Virus record (IMG/VR): IMGVR_UViG_3300037882_000065
Coordinates: 1 to 15,267 of that record
Length of the DNA stretch: 15,267 nt
Direction: 5' to 3' (one strand)
Origin: a virus
Below, piece by piece: positions 1 through 15,267 of the stretch. Within the stretch, counting starts at the first letter, position 1, and each line of letters opens with the position of its first letter. The notes beneath the pieces are model-generated. The model searched no databases, was not told where the DNA came from, and saw nothing but the letters and a program-made list of their open reading frames with translations. The position numbers were made by a program, and so were the translations under genes.

Positions 1-99
1 AAAAGTGCCACCATGAACTTATCGCCGTCGATACGTTGGCCAGCAACAAGACTTGCGTGTTTTCTGTCCGGACTTAAATCGATAGCCATCCAAGTATCC
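1..99. repeat. Terminal overlap copy 1 (identical to 15169-15267); a circular-assembly overlap, not a biological repeat
   Basis: Compared base by base: aaaagtgccaccatgaactt...gatagccatccaagtatcc at 1-99 equals 15169-15267. Both copies are cut exactly by the window ends and lie inside the terminase reading frame. Confidence 0.9.
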
Positions 100-1058
100 T
101 TCTCACGATCAAGCTTAAAGGAATCATCCTTACACTTCTTCCATTCGGCTTCTGAGATGACTGGATTAATCATTGAAACAAACTGGCAAAGGATCTCAGT
201 CCTAAATATATCTTCTCGGTCTGACAAAGAATCTTTAATGTTGTCCTCATGAACCGTGTGGCCTAAAGAGGGGTTACTTTGATACCAAGCCTCTTTATCG
301 TCAACAGCAGCCCCCGGTTCTGCCGACCATTCAAACCATCCAATAGAATCATCTGCCCCAGATGCCGCAGCTAGTCCTCGTTCTCTAAATTTAAGAAGTA
401 AAACCGATCCTGCATGGCCTGCATTGCTGTAGAAATATGCTTGAGGGTTTTTATTTGACATCTGAGTAAATCGCATGCTTGACCAAACATCTTCTGTATC
501 GAATTCGCGTAACTCATCGATGTGAATTACATCCGGCCCTGCTATACCACGCGCGGCTGAGTTTCCTGCTCTAATTAGGTAGCGAGCCCCATTCTTAAAT
601 CTAATCTCTTGGCTTCCCTTAGACTCAAACTTCTTAGCAAAGTTTTCCTGAAGGATATGAGAGTCATCAATCATCTGCCCTACCTTAAAAAAGATTTCTG
701 CTGAGGTAGTGAGTTTGTGAGCTGTAGCAAGGTGCATCTTCTCGCCTAGTCTGTAAATACCAAACAAGATCCGAAGCGCCATAAATGTTGACTTGCCCTG
801 TTGTCTCGGAAGCATGATGCCCACTAGCGGATGAGCCCATCTAGAATCTGCTTTGTATTTCAAGCTCTCGATTGCAAGCAATTCCTGCCAAGGTAGAAGC
901 GGAAACCCGATCTCTTTGCAAAAGTCGATCATCTCTTGCCCTCTAGAAGGTAAATCTAGGCTTGGAGACATGATTCTGGGCGTTTGTGAGCCATAACGCG
1001 GTTCTACTACCCCTTCCTGCGCCCGTGTGAGCCCGATAGAGCCGTTTTCAGCCGTCAT
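1..1058 (-). CDS. terL: Terminase large subunit, N-terminal ATPase part (continues across the circular junction into 14760-15168; full protein 488 aa)
   Basis: Not in the ORF track because it runs off the window edge. Hand translation from ATG 1058-1056 is open down to base 1: MTAENGSIGLTRAQEGVVEPRYGSQTPRIMSPSLDLPSRGQEMIDFCKEIGFPLLPWQELL... Walker A is GIMLPRQQGKST (786-821) and Walker B is VIHIDE (513-530). The frame runs into MAIDLSPDRK at base 89, which equals 15257. Confidence 0.9.
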   Translation of the reverse strand, partial: MTAENGSIGLTRAQEGVVEPRYGSQTPRIMSPSLDLPSRGQEMIDFCKEIGFPLLPWQELLAIESLKYKADSRWAHPLVGIMLPRQQGKSTFMALRILFGIYRLGEKMHLATAHKLTTSAEIFFKVGQMIDDSHILQENFAKKFESKGSQEIRFKNGARYLIRAGNSAARGIAGPDVIHIDELREFDTEDVWSSMRFTQMSNKNPQAYFYSNAGHAGSVLLLKFRERGLAAASGADDSIGWFEWSAEPGAAVDDKEAWYQSNPSLGHTVHEDNIKDSLSDREDIFRTEILCQFVSMINPVISEAEWKKCKDDSFKLDREKDTWMAIDLSPDRKHASLVAGQRIDGDKFMVAL

Positions 1059-1060
1059 GA

Positions 1061-1375
1061 CTAGTTCTCATCCGATTCGAGCAGATAGTGGCTTTCTGTG
1101 GCGTTTTTGGGGTAAAGAGAACCATGAAGGGTCGGTGGTGTCTTAGCGCTCTCAAAAAACCTACCCCCCTTCGATGAATTACATGATTGGCATAATACTT
1201 CTAAATTACTTAAAGCATCACTACCACCTAATACCCTTGGAACTATGTGATCTACAGTAAGACTATCCTCTGTGCCACATCTTTGGCAGCATTGATCTCT
1301 ATTAATTACTGTCTGTCTTATTTTACGCCAAGCAGTAGTAGATCCAGTAGAACGTAGAGCTGATTGCTTAGCCAT
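1061..1375 (-). CDS. HNH endonuclease (terminase-associated type)
   Basis: 104 aa with CCQRCG...DHIVPRVLGG...SNLEVLCQSCNSSKG, an HNH beta-beta-alpha-metal motif with paired CxxC. Its stop is 2 nt before the terL ATG. Its start overlaps the upstream stop as TAATG. Confidence 0.85.
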   Translation of the reverse strand: MAKQSALRSTGSTTAWRKIRQTVINRDQCCQRCGTEDSLTVDHIVPRVLGGSDALSNLEVLCQSCNSSKGGRFFESAKTPPTLHGSLYPKNATESHYLLESDEN

Positions 1376-1815
1376 TAATGCCAGCCCTTATCCTTCCAAT
1401 GTTGTAATGCTATACATGGTTCACCGTATCTATGACATATGTAATCTAATCCCCATTGTACTTGCTTATATCCATCTACCCTAGCAAGGTACTTAGATCT
1501 ACCTTGTGGTATTCCATGATGAGAACCATTCTTTGCTTCTGGTCTCCAATTACTTTCCTTTGTATAAAGCTTTTCTAAACACTTAAACTCTTTATAGTTA
1601 TATTCTAATTGATGTAATGCAAACTCTTTGTATGTTACATATTGCTTTGGTTTAGAGCCACCTGCTTCAGGCATAAAGCATAGAGATATCCCAATACATG
1701 CAAGCACCCCCCGCGCTATCCGCTTTAGCGGCGCGGGTTGAGCCCCTGAAGGGCTCTGCCTAGACATGGTACTGACTCTGTCAAGTTCCCCGTTTAATCT
1801 TGGGCGTGTCATCAC
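1375..1815 (-). CDS. Secreted or membrane-anchored lytic transglycosylase-like peptidoglycan hydrolase
   Basis: The C-terminal motif ESNWRPEAKNGSHHGIPQ...QVQWGLDYICHRYGEPCIALQHW matches the ESxWNxxAxNxSGAxGIPQ...QIxWGLxYIxxRYG transglycosylase family common in Gram-positive bacteria. The N-terminus has a basic stretch then a hydrophobic segment, KRIARGVLACIGISLCFMP. The start is GTG 1815 or ATG 1812, after GGAGGT. Confidence 0.65.
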   Translation of the reverse strand: MMTRPRLNGELDRVSTMSRQSPSGAQPAPLKRIARGVLACIGISLCFMPEAGGSKPKQYVTYKEFALHQLEYNYKEFKCLEKLYTKESNWRPEAKNGSHHGIPQGRSKYLARVDGYKQVQWGLDYICHRYGEPCIALQHWKDKGWH

Positions 1816-1827
1816 TTATTTACCTCC

Positions 1828-1849: not shown

Positions 1850-1852
1850 GTA

Positions 1853-2308
1853 TCACCATGATTTAATCCTATTTACATGGGCATAATTACATTTAGAACA
1901 AGCTGCAACAAGGTTCTCTAGCTTGTCAATACCACCTTCATGTCTTGGAGTTACATGATCGACAGTATTAGCTTCATCTCCACACCAAAAGCATTGTTCA
2001 TCGTGCATCTTCAAGATAATGCGCCTACGCTGCCTCCAGATTCTTCTATTTGATTCTAATGCAGAAGGGTGCAAGCCAAGCATTACTTCATGGAATACAG
2101 GTAAATTGCTGTAAGTAATCTCTGTTACTGCTTTTCTATGACTAATCACATTTTCTTTCAAATAAGCATGAGTGCTTGGCAATCTCAAAGTAAAGAGTTT
2201 TTGACTTACTGAGTGGTAACTTCTACCAAGATGAGCAGAGCAATGACTGATTCCTTTCAAGCGGTTTGCTTTAAGCCAATCAATGTCAGCCTCTGTCCAT
2301 TTAGGCAT
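1853..2308 (-). CDS. Second HNH endonuclease with an extra N-terminal (possibly DNA-binding) domain
   Basis: 151 aa. The C-terminus reads CFWCGDEANTVDHVTPRHEGGIDKLENLVAACSKCN, an HNH motif. The roughly 100-aa N-terminal region starts WTEADIDWLKANRLKG, which looks like a Myb/SANT or HTH-type helix. The ATG overlaps the upstream stop (ATGCCTAA). Confidence 0.8.
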   Translation of the reverse strand: MPKWTEADIDWLKANRLKGISHCSAHLGRSYHSVSQKLFTLRLPSTHAYLKENVISHRKAVTEITYSNLPVFHEVMLGLHPSALESNRRIWRQRRRIILKMHDEQCFWCGDEANTVDHVTPRHEGGIDKLENLVAACSKCNYAHVNRIKSW

Positions 2309-2471
2309 CTTTGCCCCATCCTTTGCCCTTAAAGTGAATTGGATTTGCAGCTATAACTTTAGACATAGGCTCATTACAGTAAGTGCAAGGTACTACTGGT
2401 CGATCGTGCCATCCGTGATAGATCTCTTGACTAAGATTGCATCGTTTGCATGTGTAGTCGTAGGCTGGCAT
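2301..2471 (-). CDS. FmdB-family zinc-ribbon protein
   Basis: MPAYDYTCKRCNLSQEIYHGWHDRPVVPCTYCNEPMSKVI matches the MPxYxYxCxxC...CPxC FmdB-type signature. I moved the start to the internal ATG at 2471, which follows AGAGGTG by 6 nt. The track start at 2504 adds 11 unsupported residues. Confidence 0.6.
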   Translation of the reverse strand: MPAYDYTCKRCNLSQEIYHGWHDRPVVPCTYCNEPMSKVIAANPIHFKGKGWGKDA

Positions 2472-2893
2472 ATTAAGCACCTCTGTATCATGTAAGACCC
2501 ACATCCTGTACAGCGGTCAATATCTGCCTCTGTGGGTTCGCTAGTAAGATGACCGTATTTTAATATGAGTAGTGGCAAGAGATCCTCAAGTCGGATGATG
2601 GCGGCATAGTCACGCGCATCCTCTCCCTGTCCGTTGAGTCTGATTACTCCAAAGCCCAATTCCCCCGAAACGGCTGTGCGAGTTTTCAGCTGTGCTAAAT
2701 ATGCTTTTGGTTGGAATCCAGCGCGGGCTTTCACCTCAACATCAAAAGGCACATTAACAATATCCTTGCCACTACCCCTTCCCACACATGCGCCTTGCCA
2801 TACAGTCGATAGGTACTGTGCGACTACGCGCTCTGTGCGGAAACCTCTGTGTTTCCTGTGCTGACTAGCCATTAACAGCTTTGCATTTGGCAC
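2393..2893 (-). CDS. Hjc-like PD-(D/E)xK nuclease (putative Holliday junction resolvase) with a C-terminal CxxC-x7-CxxC tail
   Basis: HRGFRTERVVAQYL...GRGSGKDIVNVPFDVEVKAR follows the archaeal-Hjc pattern G..ER....L....R..SG..D....E.K. The tail reads CTGCGSYMIQRCLIC. The start is ATG 2893 or ATG 2872 (MASQ, overlapping the upstream stop). The 3' end overlaps the FmdB gene by 79 nt. Confidence 0.55.
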   Translation of the reverse strand: MPNAKLLMASQHRKHRGFRTERVVAQYLSTVWQGACVGRGSGKDIVNVPFDVEVKARAGFQPKAYLAQLKTRTAVSGELGFGVIRLNGQGEDARDYAAIIRLEDLLPLLILKYGHLTSEPTEADIDRCTGCGSYMIQRCLICQPTTTHANDAILVKRSITDGTIDQ

Positions 2894-3041
2894 ATTGCCA
2901 AGTTACTACACCATTTACAGAATCAGATGAAATATCCTCTAAGTCTCTTATCTGTACCGGCTCATTACATAACTGACATGGAACGAATGCTGACATAAGA
3001 TCAACCCATTCGCCATTGATCTTAATCCCTACAGTACCCAT
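2865..3041 (-). CDS. Small zinc-ribbon protein (58 aa), function unknown
   Basis: MGTVGIKINGEWVDLMSAFVPCQLCNEP...WQCAKCKAVNG carries two CxxC pairs. I chose ATG 3041, which forms a TAATG overlap with the upstream stop and follows GGAAGTGAG. The track version starts at 3107, inside the upstream gene. Confidence 0.5.
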   Translation of the reverse strand: MGTVGIKINGEWVDLMSAFVPCQLCNEPVQIRDLEDISSDSVNGVVTWQCAKCKAVNG

Positions 3042-3709
3042 TAAATTCTCACTTCCTGTGGACGCCATTTTCCATCGCTTCCCATGCGATACCAATTCGT
3101 AGGGCACTTAGCCTCACCTGTGCGTGGTGCATGACTGCAGAAGTATCCACCCCATGCTCTGCCATTTTTCTCGCCTTCTTTCCAAATTTGGCTGCCATGT
3201 TCGCAAGACGGAACTTGAGCAGCTTCTGGTGTACCCAAAATGTCCTGCACTAAATCAAGCGCCTTCTCTAAGGTAACAGGTGCATCGACTACGCCACGAT
3301 ATTCCCCAACAGGTGTAGTCCAGTAGTCCTGATCATCTGGCTTAACATCTTGAACTGGTGGCTTTACTACTTTTGTAGCAACCACCTTGCTCATTTCCTC
3401 TCGGCTTGGTCTCTTTCCTTTAGCAGCATAACCTGCATTTGCAAGTGCCCGACCGATTGCCGAAGTTTCACAATTCTCCAATGCAGAAGTCTGATTAACG
3501 CCGCGATCAGTAACCTTTTCCTCAGCGAGTCCTGTTGAAAACGCGGAGCTGCATTCAGCAGTCTTAAATAAATACGCTTTGACAATGTATCGATCCTTTT
3601 CACACACTTCCAATTCAGTCGATATGCGAAAATCTGGATAGTCCTTAATAAACTTTTCAAGTCTCACCTCTACTGTCTCGTAATCGGCTAAATTAAACAT
3701 AGAGCTCAT
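3041..3709 (-). CDS. Putative Rad52/Sak-like single-strand annealing protein with a Cys/Trp-rich C-terminal domain
   Basis: N-terminal sequence: YETVEVRLEKFIKDYPDFRISTEL...VKAYLF...STGLAEEKVTDRGVNQTSALENCETSAIGRALANAGY. This resembles the Rad52 N-domain pattern (beta-hairpin then helix, A.E.AET.A.KRAL..FG). The C-terminus reads CEHGSQIWKEGEKNGRAWGGYFCSH...CPTNWY. This is motif-level recognition only. Confidence 0.45.
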   Translation of the reverse strand: MSSMFNLADYETVEVRLEKFIKDYPDFRISTELEVCEKDRYIVKAYLFKTAECSSAFSTGLAEEKVTDRGVNQTSALENCETSAIGRALANAGYAAKGKRPSREEMSKVVATKVVKPPVQDVKPDDQDYWTTPVGEYRGVVDAPVTLEKALDLVQDILGTPEAAQVPSCEHGSQIWKEGEKNGRAWGGYFCSHAPRTGEAKCPTNWYRMGSDGKWRPQEVRI

Positions 3710-3971
3710 TCTCCTCTGTTGCTAATTGTCCGCCTAATGCGGCATAAGCTGCCATGTCTACCCATGTGTCGATCTGCTGTGCTGTCTCATTAGTCCTTGC
3801 AAGCTTAACCAATAACATAATTCCAGCGACTTGATAGTCATGTATTGGTGTTTGTAAGTATGCTGAGATGAGCATTGCGGTGTGTCGCAGGTTATCCGCA
3901 GGGTGACCGTATGAAAGGCCACGCTGGCTAATTGTGTCTGTGGCTGTAAGAAGGATCTCATTGGCTTTCAT
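3693..3971 (-). CDS. Conserved phage helical protein (DUF6378-like as I recall the family), function unknown
   Basis: RGLSYGHPADNLRHTAMLISAYL...IMLLVKLARTNE...DTWVDMAAYAALG matches the widespread phage pattern R..YG.p..nf..iA..w..yl...dva.mm.llK.aR...D...D.aGYA. I chose the ATG at 3971, which forms an ATGA overlap with the upstream small ORF. The track start at 3980 is a TTG. Confidence 0.55.
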   Translation of the reverse strand: MKANEILLTATDTISQRGLSYGHPADNLRHTAMLISAYLQTPIHDYQVAGIMLLVKLARTNETAQQIDTWVDMAAYAALGGQLATEENELYV

Positions 3972-4129
3972 TCTTGCCAAAAATCCTGACGGCTTGTAGA
4001 CCGTCCTTGATGATATCCCTCGCGTAAGCCTTTTTTATACGAAGTCCTTTGCACATCTATGATTACTATAGTAAAGCTAATAATCATGCCAATAATGCAG
4101 ATTAACAGTAGCTTGTCTGTATTGCTCAT
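3968..4129 (-). CDS. Small single-pass membrane protein (53 aa), not in the ORF track
   Basis: Hand translation: MSNTDKLLLICIIGMIISFTIVIIDVQRTSYKKGLREGYHQGRSTSRQDFWQE. A strong RBS, GGAAAGGGAG, lies 5 nt before ATG 4129. The stop TGA overlaps the next ATG (ATGA). Confidence 0.6.
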   Translation of the reverse strand: MSNTDKLLLICIIGMIISFTIVIIDVQRTSYKKGLREGYHQGRSTSRQDFWQE

Positions 4130-4263
4130 GTTGCTCCCTTTCCAGCGATATCTTCGCTGTTGGGATTAGTGTTGCATAGACCTATGGCAAATTTTGTTCA
4201 TTTTGGTAACGAAACCATAACGATTCTCCGATGTCTACGGCATCATCCAGAGTGCGTTTTATG

Positions 4264-5013
4264 TCAAGCGTATAATCGTCCATAAAGGGTAAACGATCCG
4301 TCCTTATTTATAGGCACTAGCATAGGGCTTACTCTGTCTCCATGTGTTTCTATGACTGCTACGCTCATCTGCCAATTAGCGCTTCCAGCCTTCAAATAAG
4401 AGGCTTTCTTCTTGTCCATAACATTACCTGCCTCTAGCCCCCATAAAGTCCTGTACGAGGCTCCTATGCCCTCTGTGAAGGCACTAATCCCTGCTCTGTG
4501 GGTATGTCCACAAACCACCGACTTACCAAACTTCTTAGCCAAACCAAGAGCTGTGAGACCGGCATTAGAGTTCATTGAGCCTTCGTCTCCGTGGACTAAG
4601 ACCCATCCTTTGTGAAACTCAAAGGGCTTTTTGTGGAAGCGGATGCCGAGACCTGCAAAGTCCATAAACTTGGCGTATTCAAGCTCTGGTAATCCAATGA
4701 GGCTAGGTGCTCGTAGTAGCGTATGGTAGAGCCTGTCTGTGTGATTGCTGCGAGTGACATCTGTTGTGCCGAGTTCATAGAGAATATCCTGAGCAAGGCT
4801 TCTGTCAGCATCGAGCGTTCCTTCCCATTCTAATTTAGTACCCTGTGCCCAACGACTTTGCGACTGCATGTCAAGCTCATCGCCGGTATTTAGGACTAGG
4901 TCAAACTTCTCGCGCTTTACTAACTTGATTAGATTCTTGACTGCTTGCTCATGATGATATGGGATCTGTAGATCTGAAATCACTAAGTAGCGTTTTTTAG
5001 TCATCGTCCTCAT
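4264..5013 (-). CDS. Calcineurin-like metallophosphoesterase (phosphatase or Mre11/SbcD-like nuclease fold)
   Basis: The ordered motifs are ISDLQIPYHH, NTGDELD, RSNHTD, LVHGDE and VCGHTHR, matching the DxH / GDxxD / GNH / H / GHxH signature set. The alternative start ATG 5004 (MTKK) overlaps the upstream stop. Confidence 0.8.
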   Translation of the reverse strand: MRTMTKKRYLVISDLQIPYHHEQAVKNLIKLVKREKFDLVLNTGDELDMQSQSRWAQGTKLEWEGTLDADRSLAQDILYELGTTDVTRSNHTDRLYHTLLRAPSLIGLPELEYAKFMDFAGLGIRFHKKPFEFHKGWVLVHGDEGSMNSNAGLTALGLAKKFGKSVVCGHTHRAGISAFTEGIGASYRTLWGLEAGNVMDKKKASYLKAGSANWQMSVAVIETHGDRVSPMLVPINKDGSFTLYGRLYA

Positions 5014-5221
5014 CTTCGTAATCGCCGAACCTTTCTGGATCGACTGGGTCTGGCAAGATCCAATGAGGATAGGCTTGAGGCTCTGTAATCATAAACATGG
5101 CTATATCTTCTGCAAAGCCTGCTCTTTTCAAGCTGCAAAAATACTCATAAAGCCCAATGCAGTAAGCATCGAGTTTTGAGTACCCTTGTTCCTCCAGTGC
5201 CTTAGTTGCTTTTCTTGCCAT
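4997..5221 (-). CDS. Hypothetical 74-aa protein with an acidic C-terminal tail (DYEDEDDD); first gene of the early module
   Basis: The ORF fills the gap with no competing frame. Its ATG is directly abutted by a DnaA-box 9-mer. No family recognised. Confidence 0.5.
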   Translation of the reverse strand: MARKATKALEEQGYSKLDAYCIGLYEYFCSLKRAGFAEDIAMFMITEPQAYPHWILPDPVDPERFGDYEDEDDD

Positions 5222-5236: not shown

Positions 5237-5428
5237 TTACTTTTTAAGAAGTTCCATCATCTGTTCTTGGCGTGTCTCTATTCTTGCTAAACGATCTGCA
5301 AGAGAGGAGCCACCATTTGGCGTAAGAGTCCAAAGCCATCCACGAACCAAATAACGCAAACCGCCGACAAAAACAGCAAGCGTAGAAGTAATGGCAAGGA
5401 TGAACCCTGCCCATTCATTTGCACTCAC
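5237..5428 (-). CDS. Holin-like or lysis-accessory membrane protein (63 aa, one TM plus a charged C-terminus)
   Basis: The TM segment is WAGFILAITSTLAVFVGGL, followed by RLARIETRQEQMMELLKK. The GTG start overlaps the upstream stop (GTGA). It is the last gene of the lysis cassette. Confidence 0.55.
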   Translation of the reverse strand: MSANEWAGFILAITSTLAVFVGGLRYLVRGWLWTLTPNGGSSLADRLARIETRQEQMMELLKK

Positions 5429-5634
5429 TCCATTCTGCCGTAATCTTTACGGTTCTTGTCTGCCCACGCTGCAACAGGTGCAGTAATGCCAGCGATCAAG
5501 ATTGCGTACTCTGGAGCAAAGTCCATTGCTAGTGCAAGAGTTGCTGCTACCGCAGATGCGCCAACCCCGATTAAATAATCTTTGAACATAGCCTTGAATT
5601 TAGGTGACTTCAAGCGCTTAATTAGTTTCTTCAT
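5425..5634 (-). CDS. Putative holin (69 aa, two TM segments)
   Basis: Basic N-terminus MKKLIKRLKSPKFK, then TM1 YLIGVGASAVAATLALAM, TM2 YAILIAGITAPVAAWA, and a charged C-terminus. It has an ATGA overlap with the upstream hydrolase gene. Confidence 0.6.
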   Translation of the reverse strand: MKKLIKRLKSPKFKAMFKDYLIGVGASAVAATLALAMDFAPEYAILIAGITAPVAAWADKNRKDYGRME

Positions 5635-6086: not shown

Positions 6087-6162
6087 CTGTCATCGGACGA
6101 ATAACTGTTTCGCCTGTTGCGATGTTATCTTCTGTGATAAGTGGACGAGTTTCTTTAGTCAT
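6034..6162 (-). CDS. Possible 42-aa ORF (hypothetical), not in the ORF track
   Basis: Hand translation: MTKETRPLITEDNIATGETVIRPMTDEEYATYLNIKNAPETE. It has a TAATG overlap with the upstream stop at 6162. It overlaps the 5' end of the hydrolase ORF, so only one of the start models can be right. Confidence 0.3.
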   Translation of the reverse strand: MTKETRPLITEDNIATGETVIRPMTDEEYATYLNIKNAPETE

Positions 6163-8337: not shown

Positions 8338-9668
8338 ACAACAGAAACCAGTCGAGATGCGCCGAGGTTACTAAAGGTTCCGCTTAGGGTTGCCTCTGTG
8401 TTAAGAATCTGAGCGATCTGTCTAGCTGTGCTAATTGGATCAATAGCCCCGCTTACATTGATATTGACGTTTGTAGCTGGCGCTTGGGATCTGTTGGGCA
8501 GATTAAATGCGTTGCCAGACGGTAAGCCAGAAGGTACGGTAGTTCTAGAAGAGGTTGGTGAACTTGCAGGAGAACTTGATCCAAAACTTAAAGCATCCTT
8601 AACTTTCCTCCCCAATTCTATAATCTTTTCAAAGCCTGAAATTAACTTGCCAACAAAGTTAATCACTACTGAAATGGCTAGTCCTATTCCTTCAATGGCA
8701 AGTTTAAAGACACCTGACAAAAAGGGTGCAACAAACTTTCTTAGGAAATCAAACAATGCCGCAAACTCATCCTTGTTATCTAGGACTGCTTTTTTAATTC
8801 TGTCAAAGGCACTCTTGAGGCCTTCAATGATTGGAGTAAAGAATTTCTTAGTAAAGTCTGAAACTTGTTTAAATGTTTCATTTAGTCCTTCTTTGCCACC
8901 CATGCCATCGATAAAACTTTGGACTGCTGGAACTACCTTGTTTACAATTACTTCAACAATGGGGGTAATGGCATCAAGAATAAATGCTCCGACTGTCTCC
9001 TTTGCTTCGTTAAAAGCAACTGACAAGCGAGCCATCTTGCCTTGGAAAGTGTCTGCCTGCTTGGATGCCTGTCCTTCAAAGGTTGCAGCTAGTTTGGCAG
9101 TTACTTGGTCAAAGGTGAGGGTTGCTAACTCAGCCTTACTAATACCTACGCCAAGACGTGAAAGTCCGGCTAGGTTGCCTTCCTGTGCCTTTGATAAGGC
9201 TTCGGTAACTGCTTGTAGGCTCTTGCCTGTACCTGCTGAAATATCAATCGCGATGGCTTGTAATTCTTGAGCCTTTGTAACATCTCCAGTAGCGCGGGTA
9301 AGCCGATCTAAGGAAGGACGAAGCTCATCATCTGTAACACCAAATAATAAAGACTGCTTGAGAATGTAATCTTCTGTGGCCTTAATTTGGTCATCTGTTG
9401 CGCCTGTCACATTCTTTAATGTGGTTGCTAATTTAGCCTGCGCCGCTTCATCTTCAATAGCAGCTTTAACGCCATCAATGGCTAACTTGCCTGCATAGGC
9501 CGCTGCTGCAACTCCTGCTGCTAAAAAGGCTGCGCCTGCGACCTTGCCAAACTTAGAAACTTTATCGCCAAAGGTAGTTACATCATTATCTGCGCCTTTA
9601 AGGCTCTTAGTAAAGTTACTGACATCGGCTAATAACTTAAGCGTTAACGCTCTACTATCTTTAGCCAT
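8334..9668 (-). CDS. Tail tape measure protein (444 aa from ATG 9668)
   Basis: Long alpha-helical Ala/Lys/Glu-rich protein with a hydrophobic stretch (VAGAAFLAAGVAAAAYAG) and a second membrane-like segment (LAIEGIGLAISVVINFVGKL). It sits between the chaperone region and Dit. The start forms TAATG with the upstream stop after GAAGGAG. The track start at 9677 is a GTG. Confidence 0.85.
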   Translation of the reverse strand: MAKDSRALTLKLLADVSNFTKSLKGADNDVTTFGDKVSKFGKVAGAAFLAAGVAAAAYAGKLAIDGVKAAIEDEAAQAKLATTLKNVTGATDDQIKATEDYILKQSLLFGVTDDELRPSLDRLTRATGDVTKAQELQAIAIDISAGTGKSLQAVTEALSKAQEGNLAGLSRLGVGISKAELATLTFDQVTAKLAATFEGQASKQADTFQGKMARLSVAFNEAKETVGAFILDAITPIVEVIVNKVVPAVQSFIDGMGGKEGLNETFKQVSDFTKKFFTPIIEGLKSAFDRIKKAVLDNKDEFAALFDFLRKFVAPFLSGVFKLAIEGIGLAISVVINFVGKLISGFEKIIELGRKVKDALSFGSSSPASSPTSSRTTVPSGLPSGNAFNLPNRSQAPATNVNINVSGAIDPISTARQIAQILNTEATLSGTFSNLGASRLVSVV

Positions 9669-10135
9669 TATGTCCACTCCTTCAAAATCTTATCAAACGA
9701 TTTAGTCCACTCAGCTACAATGTAAGGCTGGATCCTGCGTAATGTTGGATAAATAAAATAACCTTTCGAGCCTGCTCCGCCAGAAGGATTAGGCCCTGAC
9801 CAAACAGGAAACTGCTTTAGTTTATTAGTACCAAACTCCGAAGGCCCCCAGAGTACTTTAGTCGTTGCACCCCCTGAAAACTTTTGAGCTGCAAAGCCAA
9901 ATGTAATTTCACCTATGCGGCTAGACTTTTTAACTTTAGAGCCTTGTGTAATGCGAGTAGCGACTGCTCGAGACTGTAGCCCTGATGAGGCACTAATTAC
10001 TTCTTTCCTAGCGTATTCGGCTAGAGCGCCAGATTGCCGTTGGGCTTCTTCTGTCGCTTGCTTGTCCATATTACGAAGAGCCTTAAAGACTTCTGAGAGT
10101 TGCTTTTTGTTAAGAGCGACTGCATCATCTGCCAT
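9668..10135 (-). CDS. HK97 gp10-family-like neck / tail-completion protein (155 aa)
   Basis: LSEVFKALRNMDKQATEEAQ...GPSEFGTNKLKQFP...YFIYPTLRRIQPYIVAEW fits the gp10-family layout (N-terminal helices, EFGT motif, C-terminal P.l......i). RBS GGAGGA 6 nt upstream. Confidence 0.5.
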   Translation of the reverse strand: MADDAVALNKKQLSEVFKALRNMDKQATEEAQRQSGALAEYARKEVISASSGLQSRAVATRITQGSKVKKSSRIGEITFGFAAQKFSGGATTKVLWGPSEFGTNKLKQFPVWSGPNPSGGAGSKGYFIYPTLRRIQPYIVAEWTKSFDKILKEWT

Positions 10136-10504
10136 TACGTTCCTCCAATACTTCTATAGCTGTAAGAATATCCTCGGCAGTTTGCCACTTATCCATAGGG
10201 ATGTGAGTGGCTATTGCCAGTTCCACTAAGAGTCGGCTTACGCTTCCTCTTGCGTGACTTTTGGGTCTCCTTCACCTACTTCGATATCGTCTACTGATTC
10301 CATCCAGACATCTAATGTCTTAGTTGGCTTTCCGCCTGCATCTCGCTTCATGGCGCTGTGTGCCACAAAAAGGATGTCCCACATTCCGCCAAACTGAGAG
10401 ATAATTTTTTTAGTTGTCATCTCCCAGCGGGCGTAATCTGGCGGGCGAACCATGTAAGTAGTTTCGGATCCGTCTATGTATTTAATTGTTATCTGCTGTT
10501 GCAT
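10125..10504 (-). CDS. Predicted -1 frameshift product of the tail assembly chaperone (gpGT-like, about 126 aa)
   Basis: After slipping on C_CCA_AAA (10265-10259), the -1 frame is open for 44 codons: SHARGSVSRLLVELAIATHIPMDKWQTAEDILTAIEVLEERNGR*. It exactly covers the otherwise ORF-free gap 10136-10237 and ends at TGA 10127-10125. Candidate internal starts in that frame lack an RBS. Confidence 0.5.
10238..10504 (-). CDS. Tail assembly chaperone (gpG-like, 88 aa)
   Basis: Small acidic protein located directly after the major tail protein gene. It has a slippery heptamer 19 nt before its stop. Confidence 0.65.
   Translation of the reverse strand: MQQQITIKYIDGSETTYMVRPPDYARWEMTTKKIISQFGGMWDILFVAHSAMKRDAGGKPTKTLDVWMESVDDIEVGEGDPKVTQEEA
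10259..10265 (-). other. Candidate -1 programmed frameshift slippery heptamer CCCAAAA (X_XXY_YYZ in the zero frame)
   Basis: The minus strand reads GGT GAA GGA GAC CCA AAA GTC. An SD-like AAGGAG sits just upstream of the heptamer. Confidence 0.5.
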
Positions 10505-10527: not shown

Positions 10528-10938
10528 CTACGCTGAGAAGGTTTCTGTAACCTCGCCCTTTGATACCTTGAATGTAAAGTCTACAGTCTGAGCATCTGTT
10601 CCAGCGCCTCCTGCTGTAGGAAACTCTGGCTTAATTGGAAATACGAATTGTGCGCCTGTTGCAGCTGTAAGTGTGATGCTTATATCTGTATCTGGTGCTG
10701 TCTCTGCTGCTGTCCAAAGAGCTTCACATACTGAGTTAGCCTTACCCCAGTCTGCCAACATTGATAGAGCAAACTCGCCTTCAATGTTTGTGGTTTTGTA
10801 AGCTTCGCCGTCAAGAGTTTGGTATGTCTCACGGACGTTTGTCTTTGTTAAAACTGCGCTTGTTGCTTGTGCTTCGATATCTGTTCCACCTGAGAAAGAT
10901 AGAGAAATATCGCGCCCTGTGATTACTACGGTTGCCAT
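10528..10938 (-). CDS. Major tail (tube) protein, 136 aa
   Basis: Position between the terminator-like gene and the chaperone. Small beta-rich protein, MATVVITGRDISLSFSGGTDIEAQATSAVLTKTN..., typical of tail tube N-termini. RBS AAAGGA. Confidence 0.65.
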   Translation of the reverse strand: MATVVITGRDISLSFSGGTDIEAQATSAVLTKTNVRETYQTLDGEAYKTTNIEGEFALSMLADWGKANSVCEALWTAAETAPDTDISITLTAATGAQFVFPIKPEFPTAGGAGTDAQTVDFTFKVSKGEVTETFSA

Positions 10939-10949: not shown

Positions 10950-11336
10950 TTAGTTTGTTTGTGTATAGTAGGTAGAAACTCTGATATCGGAGACCAACAC
11001 ATTAGAAGGGCCGACTTGAGTTACTGTTGGTTTTTCAACCGCTCCGACTGTGTACCCTGCTGGGATCACCTTCAGAACACTTATAACGAGCTGCTCGAGA
11101 TTGTCGAGCGATGCAGGGTTGCTGTTATAGGCAACCGCTACAGATATGACTAAATTAATCTTTATGTGAAGTGTTGATTTGTTAATGGTCTCTAATTCTA
11201 AATATGGTGAATCTGGAACAGTCACCACAAAAGGAACCATAGGAGCCTCTGGTACATAGGCATACACATTGCCTGCAACGCCTGCAAAGGCTGTGGCTAG
11301 TGGCTGTCTGACTGTGTCTAAGATTGTGTTTGGCAT
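10950..11336 (-). CDS. Tail terminator / tail completion-like protein (128 aa)
   Basis: Position directly upstream of the major tail protein. The pattern L..AF.G....VYAYVPE....PFVVT resembles gpU/DUF3168-type terminators. TAATG coupling. Confidence 0.45.
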   Translation of the reverse strand: MPNTILDTVRQPLATAFAGVAGNVYAYVPEAPMVPFVVTVPDSPYLELETINKSTLHIKINLVISVAVAYNSNPASLDNLEQLVISVLKVIPAGYTVGAVEKPTVTQVGPSNVLVSDIRVSTYYTQTN

Positions 11337-11977
11337 TACTGCACCATTGAATCGGTATCGATAAACGCTCCGAGAAGTCCTGACACTCGATTGAAAAGGC
11401 TACGGCCTAAACGATATGGCGAGACGGTTGTAAAGTCTACGCCTTCGATCTGTCCACCCGGAGCGATACGGCTCTGGAATACTTCTACTGATACTGCTAG
11501 GACTGCTGACTCTACGGCTGCGTTCCCTACATAAGTAGAAGCGCCTGAAAGAGTTGCCAAGCCTGAAGGGATTACTTTTCTTTCGGTAACATCTGCGCCA
11601 GTAATAGCAACAGTAAAGTAACCGTTGAATTCTCTGTAAGCACCATCTAAGTAGATGCGCGAGCTTGAGCGAACAATAAAATTTTCAACATCAATGTTGC
11701 TTGACTCGATGATAGTAAAAGTGCCGTTAAATGGGGAGCCTACGCCTGTGATGACTACGCTCTGACCCTCTGAGAAATTGTTATCGCCTAAGACTCCATA
11801 AGTTGCGATGTTATCTTGCAATGTAACTGTGTCGATAGGACTTGAGTACTTGACCAGCATAGGCAAAATAACTGCCTCAGCTGTGTCAATTACATCTGTT
11901 AGATAAGCATCGTTATAGAGGGAACTGGAAACGCCAAGCACAGAGCGTAATTCGGCTGGTGTGACTATTGTTGCCAT
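11336..11977 (-). CDS. Head-tail adaptor (gp6/gp15-like connector) with a roughly 95-aa inserted beta-rich domain
   Basis: The N-terminus VTPAELRSVLGVSSSLYNDAYLTDVIDTAEAVILPML and C-terminus AAVESAVLAVSVEVFQSRIAPGG fit head-tail connector proteins. At 213 aa it is about twice the usual length. I chose ATG 11977 after AGAGGA. The track start at 11983 is a TTG. Confidence 0.55.
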   Translation of the reverse strand: MATIVTPAELRSVLGVSSSLYNDAYLTDVIDTAEAVILPMLVKYSSPIDTVTLQDNIATYGVLGDNNFSEGQSVVITGVGSPFNGTFTIIESSNIDVENFIVRSSSRIYLDGAYREFNGYFTVAITGADVTERKVIPSGLATLSGASTYVGNAAVESAVLAVSVEVFQSRIAPGGQIEGVDFTTVSPYRLGRSLFNRVSGLLGAFIDTDSMVQ

Positions 11978-12002
11978 TTCCAATTCCTCTCAATAAACGA
12001 CT

Positions 12003-12031
12003 GGGGGAGCGATCGGGAGCAACCGCCCCCC
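12003..12031 (-). terminator. GC-rich hairpin just downstream of the capsid gene (attenuating terminator or mRNA-stabilising stem-loop)
   Basis: The minus strand reads GGGGGGCG-GTTGCTCCCGAT-CGC(T)CCCCC followed by AGTCGTTTATT. That is an 8-bp G:C stem with one bulge and a 12-nt loop, in the 61-bp gap between capsid stop 12045 and adaptor start. Confidence 0.4.
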
Positions 12032-12044
12032 CATGATTAAGTGA

Positions 12045-13607
12045 TTAGGCTACGCTCAACTTACGGAACGCTGCTGGGTAACGGTTTACTACGCAAACAT
12101 ATCCGTATAGACCGATTTCAACCTGACCGTTTGCAACTACGTTTGCACGTAGTTCGATGCGGTTGCTCTCATGGAAGCGCATTGCGTTTGATGGGTAAAC
12201 CAAAGCATGCTTTGCGCCTGCATTGTCACCTGTGTAGTTAGCATCTACAACAAGACCAAGTCCTGCGACTGTTCCTGCTGTTGATCCTTGTGAGATCAAA
12301 CCGTTAGCGTTTGATGGAGCTGCTGCTGCGAACAGCGGACGACCTGAGCCATCAACTGCACCAAGTAGTCCAGCGAAATCGATGTCATCCTCTCCGCCTG
12401 TGTTTGCAACAAGCAGACGGTTTGGTGTTGAACGCATTACGCCGTAAGCGTCTGCAATTCCGTCAGCAATAGCCTTGTAAATTGTTGATCCTGATGATCC
12501 TGCTGCTGCTTCTGCTGCAATCTGAGCTGCGTATGCATCTGTCTTGATTGCGTAGGATTCAGCTAACTCGCGCAAATACAGGTCTAAAAATCCTGGGTCG
12601 CTGCGATCGAGCAACTCGACGTCCAGAATTCCGGCCCCCGCAAACTTGACTACAGTATCCTCTTGAAACGTGACTGTAGTGTCTGTTGATGAGAACTCTG
12701 CGCCCTCTGCTGTTACTGCAACTGTTGCCTTGGTTCCCAATTTTGGAGTGAAAACCTTCATTCCAGAAACAGGAAGCGCTGCTGTTTCGATTGAATCGAT
12801 AAATGGACGTGAGTTATCAATGATGCCGATAACATCCTTTAGGTAGTTAGGTGGAACCATACCTGTGTTTTCTGCAACTGTTGCAACCTGTAGAGCTGCA
12901 ACTAGATCGCGAGCATCTGCGTCACCGCGTGTTGCTTGGATCTGTGCCATTGCGTATTGTCCTGCTGTAACATCTAGGTTTACGCGAGGATTTGTGTAAA
13001 AGACTGGACGTGTTGTCGCAGCTGTTACTTCTGACTTTGCAGCTTCAACCGTCTCGGTTGATACTGCTTCTGAAACGGTTTCTGACACTAGGTCATCTCC
13101 TTCGGTCTTAGGTTCCTCGATCTGAGGTTCCTGGGTTGATTCGGATGCAGCTGTTCCTTGTGTTTCGGTTGCTGCAACCTTTTCCACTTCCGCACCTGGG
13201 ATTGCTCCCTCAGTAACGAGTGAAACTTCGATTAGTTGTGATGCGCTAATAGCCATAACGCCGTCCTTGTTGTCCCAAGCATTTACCTTGACACCAACGC
13301 TAAAATCTGAGCGCAAACCTGTTGCAGCTTCTTCTAATGCGTCATTGCCAGCAGTTGTCTTAGCGATCTTGAATGAAGCAGTGATGCCTGTTTCATCCTG
13401 TGACCACTCCATCAACTTGCCGATTGGCTTTGTCATTTCATGCTCTAGGACTAACTTTGTATTCTTGTTAAAAGTAATTGAGTTAGGCAAGAAAACAGTT
13501 GAACCAGCAGAAGTATTGCCGACTGAATCCCATTGAACGATGCGACCGGCAATGATGCGTGATTCTGCATCGCTTGCTGTAATTGTTACTGGCATTGTTA
13601 TCTTCAT
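12045..13607 (-). CDS. Fusion protein: HK97-type prohead protease (S78-like) + acidic linker + HK97-fold major capsid protein (520 aa)
   Basis: Residues 1 to about 140 read ...RIIAGRIVQWDS...LVLEHEMTKPIGKL...GLRSDFSVGVKV, with His and Ser in the expected protease context. Residues about 140-200 form a Glu/Thr-rich linker. Residues about 200-520 are capsid-like (ends ...LYGYVCVVNRYPAAFRKLSVA). No separate protease, scaffold or capsid gene exists. ATGA overlap with the portal gene. Confidence 0.8.
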   Translation of the reverse strand: MKITMPVTITASDAESRIIAGRIVQWDSVGNTSAGSTVFLPNSITFNKNTKLVLEHEMTKPIGKLMEWSQDETGITASFKIAKTTAGNDALEEAATGLRSDFSVGVKVNAWDNKDGVMAISASQLIEVSLVTEGAIPGAEVEKVAATETQGTAASESTQEPQIEEPKTEGDDLVSETVSEAVSTETVEAAKSEVTAATTRPVFYTNPRVNLDVTAGQYAMAQIQATRGDADARDLVAALQVATVAENTGMVPPNYLKDVIGIIDNSRPFIDSIETAALPVSGMKVFTPKLGTKATVAVTAEGAEFSSTDTTVTFQEDTVVKFAGAGILDVELLDRSDPGFLDLYLRELAESYAIKTDAYAAQIAAEAAAGSSGSTIYKAIADGIADAYGVMRSTPNRLLVANTGGEDDIDFAGLLGAVDGSGRPLFAAAAPSNANGLISQGSTAGTVAGLGLVVDANYTGDNAGAKHALVYPSNAMRFHESNRIELRANVVANGQVEIGLYGYVCVVNRYPAAFRKLSVA

Positions 13608-14722
13608 CGTGTCTCCTCATTGTGGATTAGATCTTCTTCTTCTTGGATCTGCTCAATGCTCATTGCACCAATGCGATTTAAGATTTCATAAACTTGTGCT
13701 CGCTGTAATGGATCTCCACGCAAGAAGTCATCTAACGAGAAGCGAACTTCTGTAGTGCTAGATACAAAGTCAGGCATAGATAATCTTTGTTCGATTGCCG
13801 TAAGAACATATTTCATAGAGAAATCGATAAGGGCTTTACGCTCCGAAATAGCGTTGCTGTATGTCATGCTTGTAGTTTCAGCACTTACAAAGTATGCAGG
13901 AAGGTTGCAGGCGCGAGCCAATTCGAGCGCGACATATTGACGAGCTTCATTCAGCTGTAGTTTTGCGGGGTCGATGCCCAGCGCCTGCAATTCGACATCT
14001 GCATTGAGAAACGCAGTTGACTTATTTAGTCTTGCTGTTCGCCATGATTCTAGAAGTTTTGCAATACGCTCTGCTGGAAGGTTTGTACCGTTTGACTTTA
14101 AGACTTGAAGAGGAACTGGCTCTTTAGCAAACGCCTCAGCTGCCTGTTCAAGCGCATGCGCCGCCCGGATAGTGCGACCTGCTCGATTAAGTAAACCTTC
14201 ATCTAATCCGTAAAACACAACGAGCGAACCTACGCCTTGATTTGGAACTATTGAACCGTCTACCTGATAGCCAACGATTTCAGTTTGTAAATTATTTAGT
14301 TTAGGTGTAACGCGATCTGGTGCAACGCGAGTCCAATGACGAACTCTACCTGTGTCACCATATTGTTCTAAGACTTGACCATAACCGAAACCATGTAGCC
14401 AGATATCTTCTGCAAGCCATGCATAAATTGCTGAACCGGGAACTCGTGGATCTGGTTGATTGATAACTGCCGGTGCTGCAACATGTGAGCCATTTAGTTT
14501 TGAATAAACTTCTAAAGGTAACCCTGCAAGCGTTGAGCAGATAATGTTACGAGCTCTTGCAATTGTTGGAATAGCCATAGCCTGACCGCGTGTTGCAGTA
14601 GATGGCGTAAAAGTAAAAGGATTAAAAGAAGAAGTATTATTAAACGGAGCAGGTGTAGAAGCTGCATCAACTGTAATTTCAGGAGCAGCAGTTACAGGCA
14701 GAAAAAACTCTTTGATTCCCAT
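13604..14722 (-). CDS. Portal protein (HK97-type, 372 aa)
   Basis: Lies directly downstream of terL. AIPTIARARNIICSTLAGLPLEVY...INQPDP...WLHGFGYGQV...ARACNLPAYFVSAE...MTYSNAISERKAL follows the HK97-family portal pattern. Confidence 0.85.
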   Translation of the reverse strand: MGIKEFFLPVTAAPEITVDAASTPAPFNNTSSFNPFTFTPSTATRGQAMAIPTIARARNIICSTLAGLPLEVYSKLNGSHVAAPAVINQPDPRVPGSAIYAWLAEDIWLHGFGYGQVLEQYGDTGRVRHWTRVAPDRVTPKLNNLQTEIVGYQVDGSIVPNQGVGSLVVFYGLDEGLLNRAGRTIRAAHALEQAAEAFAKEPVPLQVLKSNGTNLPAERIAKLLESWRTARLNKSTAFLNADVELQALGIDPAKLQLNEARQYVALELARACNLPAYFVSAETTSMTYSNAISERKALIDFSMKYVLTAIEQRLSMPDFVSSTTEVRFSLDDFLRGDPLQRAQVYEILNRIGAMSIEQIQEEEDLIHNEETR

Positions 14723-14749
14723 TGGACATATTATACACTATTTGTCCAA
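14722..14749 (-). promoter_or_regulatory. 7-bp perfect inverted repeat (TTGGACA/TGTCCAA) bracketing a TATAAT hexamer just before the portal ATG
   Basis: The minus strand reads CTTGGACAAATAGTGTATAATATGTCCAATGGGA. TATAAT (14735-14730) ends 7 nt before the portal ATG (14722). No Shine-Dalgarno sequence is visible for the portal gene. Confidence 0.25.
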
Positions 14750-14759
14750 GTTTTAGACA

Positions 14760-15267
14760 CTATCCTATCAAAATGTCAACTTCTGTCTCTGCGCGTGTCG
14801 CAAAGTGTGTAACCATGGCTGCGCCTACTGCGCCACAGATAATCCCAGATGCTTTGCGACCCATAACCCATCCGCCATCGCCTCGCTGTAGTTTGACGGC
14901 CGATAGGACTTGCTTATCTAATTCCTCTTGGCCTTCATGGATAATTCGACCACTAGAAACGGCTGAGACGAACTCATCGCAGCTTTGTTGATAATCCTGA
15001 GAGTTGATCTCGTAAACAGGAATGCCTGCTGGCGCTAATCGAGCTGCAACTGCCCCTGCCGTCGATTTTGAATAAGCCACATAATTAACAGGAAACTTTC
15101 GAACCCATGGAGCAATATCGTTTGCCATTTGTTTGTCATCGATCGATACTGGGTTAAACCAAGTCTGTAAAAGTGCCACCATGAACTTATCGCCGTCGAT
15201 ACGTTGGCCAGCAACAAGACTTGCGTGTTTTCTGTCCGGACTTAAATCGATAGCCATCCAAGTATCC
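14760..15267 (-). CDS. terL: Terminase large subunit, C-terminal nuclease part (joins 1-1058 across the circular junction; 15169-15267 duplicates 1-99)
   Basis: The track ORF 14760-15257 begins at an internal Met (MAIDLSPDRK...), but the frame stays open to the window end and is continuous with the ORF at 1-1058. WMAIDLSPD is the usual first acidic motif of the RNaseH-like terminase nuclease. Confidence 0.9.
   Translation of the reverse strand, partial: DTWMAIDLSPDRKHASLVAGQRIDGDKFMVALLQTWFNPVSIDDKQMANDIAPWVRKFPVNYVAYSKSTAGAVAARLAPAGIPVYEINSQDYQQSCDEFVSAVSSGRIIHEGQEELDKQVLSAVKLQRGDGGWVMGRKASGIICGAVGAAMVTHFATRAETEVDILIG
15169..15267. repeat. Terminal overlap copy 2 (identical to 1-99)
   Basis: See the feature at 1-99. 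Confidence 0.9.

Follow-up and report, generated by a model that had tools for sequence, protein, structure and literature searches.

Anatomy of a 15-kb cos-packaging, siphovirus-type phage genome from a large uncultured family

Introduction

Arthrobacter cluster AN phages, which Klyczek et al. placed among the smallest siphoviruses, carry a fused protease-capsid gene, and the same work names Rhodococcus phage RRH1, at 14,270 bp, as the smallest (PMC5513430). According to a preprint, 109 actinophages have genomes below 20 kb. In fresh water, phage genome sizes peak at ~15 kb, and Kavagutti et al. 2019 (Microbiome 7:135) reported 155 'miniphages' shorter than 15 kb, without describing the anatomy of these genomes (PMC6802176). 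Here we analyze IMG/VR virus record IMGVR_UViG_3300037882_000065, a stretch of 15,267 bp that we refer to as the window, which resembles the miniphages in being a complete ~15-kb metagenome genome (PMC6802176); its unit of 15,168 bp is slightly over their 15-kb cut-off, and size and completeness otherwise fit. We put at roughly 85% the probability that the window represents the complete 15,168-bp genome of a lytic-looking, cohesive-end (cos)-packaging siphovirus-type phage, belonging to a very large uncultured family of 14.7-16 kb genomes; the small cultured actinophages in which protease and capsid are fused are distant relatives, at 25-32% protein identity.

These small actinophages, represented in our comparison by Arthrobacter clusters AN (15.3-15.6 kb), AX (Atraxa) and FE, Curtobacterium phages Root and Penoan, Microbacterium cluster EE (~17.4 kb) and Rhodococcus phage RRH1, are like the window in genome size, in carrying ~23-29 genes, in the fused protease-capsid and in having no replicase (PMC5513430; bioRxiv 10.1101/2022.02.05.479200). 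The shared gene order runs from terminase, portal, protease-capsid, adaptor, terminator and tube through the chaperones, a tape measure of ~450-600 amino acids (aa) and one or two minor tail proteins to the lysin, and in both an HNH endonuclease gene lies at the right end beside a cos site of homologous architecture. There are also differences: protein identity is 25-32% with no nucleotide similarity, GC content is 58-68% in the actinophages versus 45% in the window, and the window has an adaptor ~100 aa longer, a gp10-like gene between chaperone and tape measure, and a distinct right arm encoding a metallophosphoesterase, a DUF6378 protein and a nuclease.

The genome is one more species of a known phage kind and neither a size record nor a new type. 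What it offers is a detailed anatomical description for a highly abundant family that the literature has so far done no more than count, covering the exact cos site (from contig ends and leftover sequencing adapters), a conserved frameshift, the baseplate hub, and the missing small terminase subunit (TerS), distal tail protein (Dit) and replicase.

Genome unit

The first 99 bases of the window (1..99) are an exact copy of the last 99 (15169..15267), and no longer terminal repeat is present. This repeat is an overlap that arose when a joined form was assembled along a circular path, leaving a unit of 15,168 bp with 44.9% GC. All convincing genes, comprising 28 open reading frames (ORFs) and one frameshift product, lie on the minus strand, to which all gene coordinates below refer. 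Coding sequence makes up 97.8% of the circle, with no gap longer than 134 nt (4130-4263). An earlier description drawn up from the bare sequence (the preliminary description) had proposed a complete genome of ~15.17 kb with ~30 genes on one strand and almost no non-coding DNA, and with 15,168 bp, ~29 products and 97.8% coding this holds. For four genes, comparison with relatives favored a probable internal ATG over the TTG or GTG of the longest ORF (at 11977, 9668, 6053 and 2872), giving lengths of 213 aa for the adaptor, 444 aa for the tape measure, ~140 aa for the lysin and ~159 aa for the nuclease. Scans of the window yielded no tRNA and no Rfam match, and a sigma-70 promoter scan was uninformative, finding fewer sites than in shuffled sequence.

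Two independent assemblies support the unit. Contig L083 (JGI 3300043319 contig Ga0480374_0001675, 15,425 bp), which is 91.6% identical to the window at the nucleotide level over 13.6 kb, has a different break point and spans the window's 15168/1 junction, while the window in turn spans the ends of L083, so that L083 is a circular permutation. IMG/VR contig IMGVR_UViG_3300047564_000153 (retrieved as L003 and L012; 22,741 bp) is a head-to-tail concatemer of 1.46 units with a period of 15,555. Together, the permutation and the concatemer indicate that the unit length is real and that the map is circular or concatemeric. The two copies within the concatemer are only 97.6% identical, pointing to a long-read assembly or a two-strain chimera.

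The suggestion that this genome sits at the lower size limit for a flexible-tailed phage is only roughly right, with smaller examples in RRH1 (14,270 bp), Atraxa (14,927 bp), Root (15,138 bp) and members of the family itself at 14,720 and 14,823 bp.

The cos site and the packaged chromosome

In the virion the DNA is linear and has 12-nt cohesive ends, which arise by cutting at a cos site that precedes the ATG of the large terminase subunit gene (TerL) by 67 nt. The cleavage segment occupies 1126..1137 and reads 5'-CACCGACCCTTC-3' on the coding strand, where the layout is right end ...GCTAAGACAC, the 12 nt CACCGACCCTTC, and left end ATGGTTCTC....

The site emerged from a pile-up of relatives' contig ends. 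Among 72 loci retrieved with the capsid gene, 34 start 5-104 nt upstream of TerL, and in ~20 of them the first base is precisely the homologous one (TTGGATCTTTTGCCCCC... or ATGGTTCTTTTTACCCC...). Eleven loci retrieved through a right-arm gene terminate at ...TTTTTTTAGCACAGACGGCTAC, and a pattern search using the right-end motif of the lineage to which the window belongs found 24 contigs ending in ...ACAC, 22 of them exactly and two with one extra base. Contigs that read through the site show ACAC, then the 12 nt, then the left-end sequence, and L083 is without exactly these 12 nt. In an automated alignment of contig ends, the distinct ends collected at offset 0 numbered 39 on the right and 16 on the left, compared to at most three at other positions, and the right-end and left-end peaks lie 12 nt apart. 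Four relatives carry both physical ends at the same two nucleotides, with lengths of 15,425, 15,283, 14,823 and 14,720 bp.

Leftover library sequence marks the same positions. An Illumina adapter (AGATCGGAAGAG) is joined directly to ACAC in contigs L231 and L240, and follows the 12 nt in L249. Since adapters are fused at these contig ends, the ends are those of DNA molecules and not accidents of assembly. The untrimmed adapter, AGATCGGAAGAG..., is a contaminant of the public IMG/VR contigs concerned (L231, IMGVR_UViG_3300032320_000226; L240, 3300032328_000108; L249, 3300045999_000415).

Contig ends clustered on two nucleotides 12 nt apart thus indicate a cos site and linear virion DNA. The fixed cohesive ends typical of HK97-like cos phages are found here in the relatives' ends and the adapter fusions, with the site present in the window. 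A closed circular replicon, or a circularly permuted genome packaged by the headful without fixed ends, would agree with the exact 99-nt terminal repeat and with the terminal repeats or the concatemeric form seen in the assemblies of some relatives; circles or concatemers are, however, also the expected assembly products of the intracellular DNA of a cos phage. Such a genome would not, across dozens of separate assemblies, have its ends fall on the same pair of nucleotides with a 12-nt spacing, some of these ends adapter-ligated, nor share homologous ends with the linear records of cultured relatives, and an HNH gene beside TerL is typical of cos phages (PMC3592412). We consider this alternative very improbable. 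The single closed replicon of the preliminary description accordingly stands for the assembly and the replicative form, whereas the virion form is linear with 12-nt cohesive ends at 1126-1137.

The overhang is probably a 12-nt 3' extension. Most ends are without the 12 nt on both sides, as would follow from end repair, which removes 3' overhangs. Ends protruding 5' would instead be filled in, and this would account for L249, where the adapter comes behind the 12 nt, and for a few right ends at +12/+13. The great majority of ends (39 right and 16 left) lack the 12 nt on both sides, and cohesive ends of actinophages are as a rule 3' extensions, so we regard the 5' polarity as improbable.

The termini of the GenBank records of Atraxa and Root have a homologous end architecture, as do those of Penoan in the opposite orientation. 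Shared among them is a GGTTTTTT run, which encodes G-F-F in the tail of the HNH protein, followed ~20 nt on by a C-rich terminal 11-mer, and a left end of the form TTCC..CCCC..AAAAC. We also observed a second cos lineage (L096, L108, L115, L142, L154 and others) with a window-like right arm and a different cos and TerL region. Its right end falls 15 nt past the T-run (...GGCTAC), and read-through contigs continue as CCCCCCCTGTCT.... A second cos lineage on a shared right arm indicates that the packaging module itself has been exchanged between backbones.

Terminase and an HNH gene interrupted by cos

On the circularized sequence, TerL is a 488-aa ORF that crosses the junction, with its 5' part at 1..1058 (ATG at 1058, continuing at 15168) and its 3' part at 14760..15168. 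The ORF was assigned through PHROG 9 'terminase large subunit' (E = 8e-69) and has weak Pfam matches to Terminase_6N and TerL_nuclease. Only a 165-aa C-terminal piece is listed in the linear window, in keeping with the earlier remark that a full-length terminase is obtained by joining the ends.

Directly upstream lies a gene for a 104-aa HNH endonuclease (1061..1375; Pfam HNH, 9e-15), which stops 2 nt before the TerL ATG. The cos site cuts this gene at codon 80 and leaves the last 25 codons beyond the cut, so that the full HNH gene exists only after the ends are joined. The arrangement is conserved: in 45 of 49 distinct read-through relatives the HNH ORF crosses cos and stops at the start of TerL, and the tail peptide P[MP]T[PL].GSF.P[KRE]N.SISHYQ..[DE] is kept. 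This conservation may reflect either protein function or terminase-binding DNA signals.

HK97 gp74 provides the precedent for an HNH protein encoded beside cos and terminase that aids cos cleavage (PMC9410871; survey in PMC3592412), and by analogy the 104-aa protein is a probable cos-cleavage helper. HK97 and the window share an HNH gene at the right genome end by cos and terminase as well as fixed cohesive ends (PMC9410871, PMC3592412). They differ in that a TerS is recognized in the HK97 set (gp74, TerL and TerS) and none in the window, and in that the 12-nt site lies inside the HNH ORF of the window. HK97 itself has a 10-nt 3' overhang and a gp74 gene that is not known to be split by cos. 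The HNH gene of Atraxa stops 23 nt short of the record end, whereas that of the window runs across cos, and two or three genes separate cos from TerL in Atraxa and Root, but none does in the window.

No ORF of the window matches a TerS family, as the preliminary description had anticipated, and the spacing between cos and TerL is only 67 nt. Matches to PHROG 4581 'terminase small subunit' are restricted to the HNH domain. In the mechanism that we propose, HNH protein and TerL would jointly cut cos, as in HK97. After injection the ends would anneal, restoring the full HNH ORF, and a single leftward transcription program would run round the annealed circle.

Head, neck and tail genes

The virion module runs in the order TerL, portal, protease-capsid, gp6-like adaptor, terminator-like protein, tube, chaperone pair G/G-T, gp10-like protein, tape measure, gp27-type hub and three small tip proteins. 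The 372-aa portal (13604..14722; Pfam Phage_portal, 1e-35) has its best cultured matches in Arthrobacter cluster AN phages of 15.3-15.6 kb, at 32% identity. It is followed by a 520-aa fusion of an S78 prohead protease to an HK97-type major capsid protein (12045..13607), in which Pfam Peptidase_S78 covers residues 11-146 (1e-10) and PHROG 2263 'major head protein' the full length (3e-61), confirming the fusion suspected earlier. The L083 homologue matches Phage_capsid, and cultured homologues are labeled 'major capsid and protease fusion protein'. No separate scaffold was detected in the window, again as first described. An acidic linker within the fusion is probably a built-in scaffold, which would be removed by the S78 protease.

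The 61-nt gap after the capsid gene is occupied, as in HK97, by a terminator-like hairpin (12002..12033, directly after the gene) with a 14-bp stem, including nine G-C pairs, and a T-rich tail. This hairpin may act as an attenuator that sets the ratio of capsid to neck and tail proteins.

The head-tail adaptor (11336..11983; 213-215 aa) appears to be gp6-like with an insertion of ~95 aa, judging from its position, from weak Pfam Phage_connect_1 matches to the N-terminus in two divergent members, and from a C-terminal helix that aligns with the HK97 gp6 adaptor in hhalign (P = 0.011). These features make the enlarged adaptor of the preliminary description a reasonable reading. A homologue search returned only sequences at least 87% identical, too shallow for useful structure prediction. 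The next gene (10950..11336) encodes a 128-aa protein that we tentatively call tail-terminator-like from synteny with the 'tail terminator' of Root, an hhalign match to it (P = 0.019) and PHROG 22278, all weak; it gave no match to HK97 tail terminator and head-closure proteins. The major tail (tube) protein (10528..10938, 136 aa) was assigned through PHROG 4574 'major tail protein' (3e-5) and synteny with Atraxa, Root and Penoan.

The tail assembly chaperone pair (10125..10504) is expressed, on the evidence of its conserved slippery site, through a -1 frameshift. G is an 88-aa protein (10504..10238), and slippage at C CCA AAA (10265..10259) yields a 126-aa G-T fusion. Across 91 distinct relatives the heptamer does not vary, and the protein sequence of the -1 extension is conserved. 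The apparent 103-nt gap after the 88-aa gene is therefore coding, with the extension reaching the next gene.

This next gene (9668..10135) encodes a 155-aa protein resembling the HK97 gp10 and lambda gpZ neck or tail-completion proteins. Against the HK97 gp10 family hhalign gave P = 0.0046 over 100 collinear columns, and among ten remote relatives three match PF04883 and one matches Minor_tail_Z. The position between chaperone and tape measure is unusual, and an AlphaFold2 model was uninformative, with a predicted local distance difference test score (pLDDT) of 50. We rejected the 155-aa protein as the missing Dit, since it shows no similarity to HK97 gpM and a repeated weak similarity to HK97 gp10 and lambda gpZ. 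Profile searches against PDB sequences with the families of this protein and of the 215-, 151-, 146-, 222- and 166-aa proteins returned no meaningful match.

The tape measure (8334..9677, 444-447 aa) is recognized by PHROG 8462 and PHROG 991 'tail length tape measure protein', by hydrophobic segments and by position. Directly after it comes the gene for a 384-aa protein (7183..8337), whose AlphaFold2 model (predicted TM-score 0.71) places it among Tal-like baseplate hubs with the gp27/Mu gp44/VgrG fold. Searching the PDB with Foldseek, we found the 43-kDa tail protein of MuSo2 (3cdd) at E 7e-15, with TM-scores of 0.64/0.73 for the top chain and up to 0.65/0.75 across chains, followed by Mu gp44, T4 gp27, VgrG and the baseplate of phage 80alpha; in BFVD the hub matches minor tail proteins of actinophages. 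A Tal-like hub had been thought absent, and the modeled fold of the 384-aa protein overturns that claim. A Dit was not recognized by Pfam, PHROG or PDB profile searches, nor by hhalign against HK97 gpM.

Three small proteins complete the tip. A 55-aa protein with a YNWPTP N-terminus (6998..7165) is an ORF kept in most relatives. The 110-aa tail-fiber-like protein (6662..6994) matches PHROG 1276 (4e-10) and PHROG 11338 'tail fiber protein' (5e-6), and a 166-aa protein (6162..6662), found only in the closest relatives, is by its position a receptor-binding candidate. The 110- and 166-aa proteins vary between relatives.

The siphovirus-type module proposed at the outset is borne out by TerL, portal, protease-capsid, tube, -1 frameshift chaperone and tape measure, together with the lack of any sheath-like protein among the 28 ORFs. 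With the missing genes listed, it becomes possible to test how small the gene set of a flexible-tailed phage can be.

Length (~15 kb) and the lack of a replicase and TerS are also what gene transfer agent clusters and capsid-hijacking satellites look like, and one relative sits in a metagenome-assembled genome (MAG). The window, however, has a full virion and lysis gene set and no integrase, and none of ~290 related loci shows host flanks. Whole-length contigs end at cos on both sides, and the contig in the MAG, 14,860 bp long, likewise forms one whole unit, beginning at the left cos end. Cultured phages of like size and layout form plaques (PMC5513430). A fragment of a larger phage genome, a prophage region or a non-autonomous element of either kind is thus very improbable.

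Relatives and mosaicism

A megablast search of the whole genome against 50,697 phage records gave no match, and an exact copy of the window's capsid protein is not on record among public assemblies. In IMG/VR, by contrast, the capsid-fusion gene has at least 300 matching stretches at 67-96% identity, and the protein clusters for three different genes stand at 1,188, 2,848 and at least 7,997. NCBI holds a family member, LR797094.1 ('uncultured Caudovirales phage' UFOVP1144; 15,260 bp), which has the gene order of the window and is 60% identical in the hub and 75% in the capsid fusion. UFOVP records reportedly stem from Kavagutti et al. 2019. Novelty in kind, as suggested in the preliminary description, therefore fails against the known miniphages (PMC6802176), LR797094.1 and hundreds to thousands of relatives, although no near-identical genome was found. 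Member P0308 (14,930 bp; sources JGI and Tara) hints that the family may extend beyond fresh water.

The best match is L083, which shares gene order and tail-tip genes with the window and differs in its capsid-fusion allele, in a Dam methylase that takes the place of the 151-aa HNH protein, and in the HNH/transglycosylase region. Overall similarity is ~82% (91.6% identity x 89% aligned), so the two belong to the same genus-level group and are different species by the usual 95% rule. Along its length the window is L083-like almost throughout (89-99.7%), and 2001-2500 has no nucleotide relative. The capsid fusion (12001-13500) comes from another lineage, with 92-95% identity to L250, L010 and L245, and is a clean single-gene replacement of a major structural gene. 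The family is strongly mosaic.

A comparison with cultured phages gave 124 records that match the capsid fusion at 25-27% identity, including Curtobacterium phages Penoan (15,303 bp) and Root (15,138 bp), Arthrobacter phages Atraxa/Sputnik (14,927 bp) and MooKitty, and Microbacterium cluster EE. In tblastn searches against Atraxa and Penoan, seven of the 28 ORFs found matches at 22-55% identity, among them TerL, portal, capsid fusion, tape measure and both HNH proteins. Gene content and nucleotide similarity are insufficient to join the window to clusters AN, AX, FE or EE or to the group of RRH1.

Host

We consider an actinobacterium the likely host. The capsid-fusion matches among cultured phages are actinophages in 122 of 124 cases, those of the transglycosylase-like protein described below in 135 of 136 phage records, and those of the lysin candidate in all five identifiable cultured-phage hits, the sixth being an unannotated uncultured phage. 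Actinophages also account for ~112 of the 125 portal matches and for the large majority with TerL. It is these five unrelated genes, pointing almost only to actinophages, and a cos site homologous to that of Arthrobacter and Curtobacterium phages that argue for this host. No prophage copy was seen. Of 185,579 species genomes scanned, just one contained a relative, the GTDB species-representative MAG 'uncultured Ilumatobacteraceae'. This relative, L289 (CAYMUC010000076.1, 14,860 bp), is a single contig that holds a whole phage genome and has the left cos end at its start. Its presence there may be a host hint or bin contamination, binning being weak evidence.

Family GC content is 44-49%, and freshwater acI and acIV Actinobacteria have ~41-50% GC. 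The family thus fits low-GC planktonic Actinobacteria, and in our proposed scheme the host would be a low-GC planktonic actinobacterium. The preliminary description had noted actinophage-like motifs and speculated on a low-GC actinobacterial host; the actinophage-like gene pool at 45% GC stands, while the host itself is likely and not proven.

The same phage could instead infect a host outside the Actinobacteria, its actinophage-like genes reflecting an old shared gene pool and database bias. Hosts of miniphages were called mainly through whiB (PMC6802176), which the window's family lacks: our motif scan of 288 related loci found none. A GC content of 45% is far under that of cultured actinobacterial hosts, identity to cultured actinophages is only 25-43%, and one member comes from a Tara data set. 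Set against this are five unrelated genes, two of them for cell-wall enzymes, with almost exclusively actinophage matches, the homology of cos to the site of Arthrobacter and Curtobacterium phages, the sole genome-collection match in an Ilumatobacteraceae (Actinomycetota) bin, and the GC range of acI and acIV. On balance a non-actinobacterial host seems rather unlikely.

Several points weigh against the overall reading of a cos-packaging siphovirus of Actinobacteria. Siphovirus morphology is read from the genes alone. The window's cos was placed by homology from the ends of relatives, with the site sequence itself present in the window, and the polarity of the overhang hangs on the behavior of end repair, with a few ends at +12/+13 and -13/-14 unexplained. 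Neither TerS nor Dit was recognized, which is unusual for a cos siphovirus, and some assignments may be incomplete. With no whiB, tRNA, integrase or CRISPR link, the host rests on gene-pool affinity, one binning and GC content, and the cultured-phage database is rich in actinophages, at an estimated tenth or so of its records, so that raw counts are inflated, though not to 98%.

A bolder picture, which we hold to be doubtful, is that of a stripped-down siphovirus in which TerL and an end-joined HNH protein carry out cos packaging without TerS, a gp27-type hub docks on the tube in a Dit-less tip, and the phage is the dominant 15-kb phage of ultra-small planktonic acI/acIV Actinobacteria, for which hardly any phages are in culture.

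Through its link to the cultured phages of Arthrobacter and Curtobacterium, which extends to cos, the genome offers a handle on phages of uncultured low-GC freshwater Actinobacteria.

Lysis genes and the right arm

The lysis set announced in the preliminary description is present as a lysin candidate, two membrane proteins and a transglycosylase-like protein. The endolysin candidate (5631..6086; at most 151 aa, probable ATG at 6053) matches PHROG 32486 (1e-10) and gave no Pfam or PDB match. An alignment of homologues shows an invariant H/D pattern, SDHNP...HxHxS, that suggests a zinc peptidase. Directly after it, a 69-aa membrane protein (5425..5634) with a transmembrane segment and a match to PHROG 37724 (3e-23) is a holin candidate, and a 63-aa protein (5237..5428) with an N-terminal transmembrane segment and a PHROG 9869 match may be a holin-like or accessory lysis protein. 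The fourth component, a 146-aa lysozyme-like protein or transglycosylase (1375..1815; ESxWxP..NGSHxGIPQG), carries a hydrophobic anchor and matches PHROG 12661 'transglycosylase' (1e-15). Lysis would then proceed through the zinc-peptidase-like lysin, the two small membrane proteins and the anchored transglycosylase. A 42-aa ORF (6034..6162) is called in close relatives and is of uncertain coding status.

No polymerase, primase, helicase, integrase, repressor or replicase was detected in the window, which upholds the earlier view that a replicase is absent. Replication would be carried out by host enzymes, aided by a small set of nucleases and the phosphoesterase. A short recombination module, also proposed, is a reasonable guess for some of the right-arm genes and is not shown by the data. 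The right arm includes the gene of a nuclease-like protein (2393..2893; at most 166 aa, probable ATG at 2872), a candidate junction resolvase that matches PHROG 244 'RusA-like Holliday junction resolvase' (2e-7), has a D..ExK motif (invariant D44, E53 and K55) and a C-terminal ribbon of four invariant Cys, and gave no PDB match. A conserved early protein of 222 aa (3041..3709; PHROG 11717, 7e-33, no assigned function) combines a conserved N-terminal domain with a C-terminal Cys/His cluster and had no PDB or Pfam match; a role in DNA metabolism would be a guess.

The remaining small genes are those for a conserved acidic protein of 74 aa (4997..5221), an ORF also present in relatives; a 53-aa membrane protein with one strong hydrophobic segment (3968..4129); a 95-aa DUF6378 protein (3693..3980; Pfam PF19905, 1e-20); an 80-aa Cys-rich protein (2865..3107), an ORF kept in most relatives; and a 67-aa zinc-ribbon protein (2301..2504; Pfam Zn_ribbon_8, 3e-7, below the family cut-off). 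The last overlaps the gene for a second HNH endonuclease (1853..2308; 151 aa with an N-terminal extension; Pfam HNH, 7e-10). Together these two genes (1853-2504) have no nucleotide relative in ~290 related loci, and the closest genomes, L083 and L290, carry a Dam-type methyltransferase in place of the 151-aa HNH protein. The second HNH gene is probably an accessory, mobile cassette.

The metallophosphoesterase (4264..5013, 249 aa; PHROG 221, 3e-62; Pfam Metallophos) has at least 597 matching IMG/VR stretches, and in the 80 best of them its protein identity is 97-99%. Contigs with a near-identical phosphoesterase have widely differing neighbor genes, and the alleles of the capsid-nearest relatives are ~45% identical. 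Such a pattern points to an allele that passes from one backbone to another and has either swept or come under strong constraint. Between the phosphoesterase gene and that of the 53-aa membrane protein lies the only sizeable non-coding stretch of the genome (4130-4263, 134 nt), a candidate regulatory or origin region; at the corresponding place in L083, a 33-aa ORF is called.

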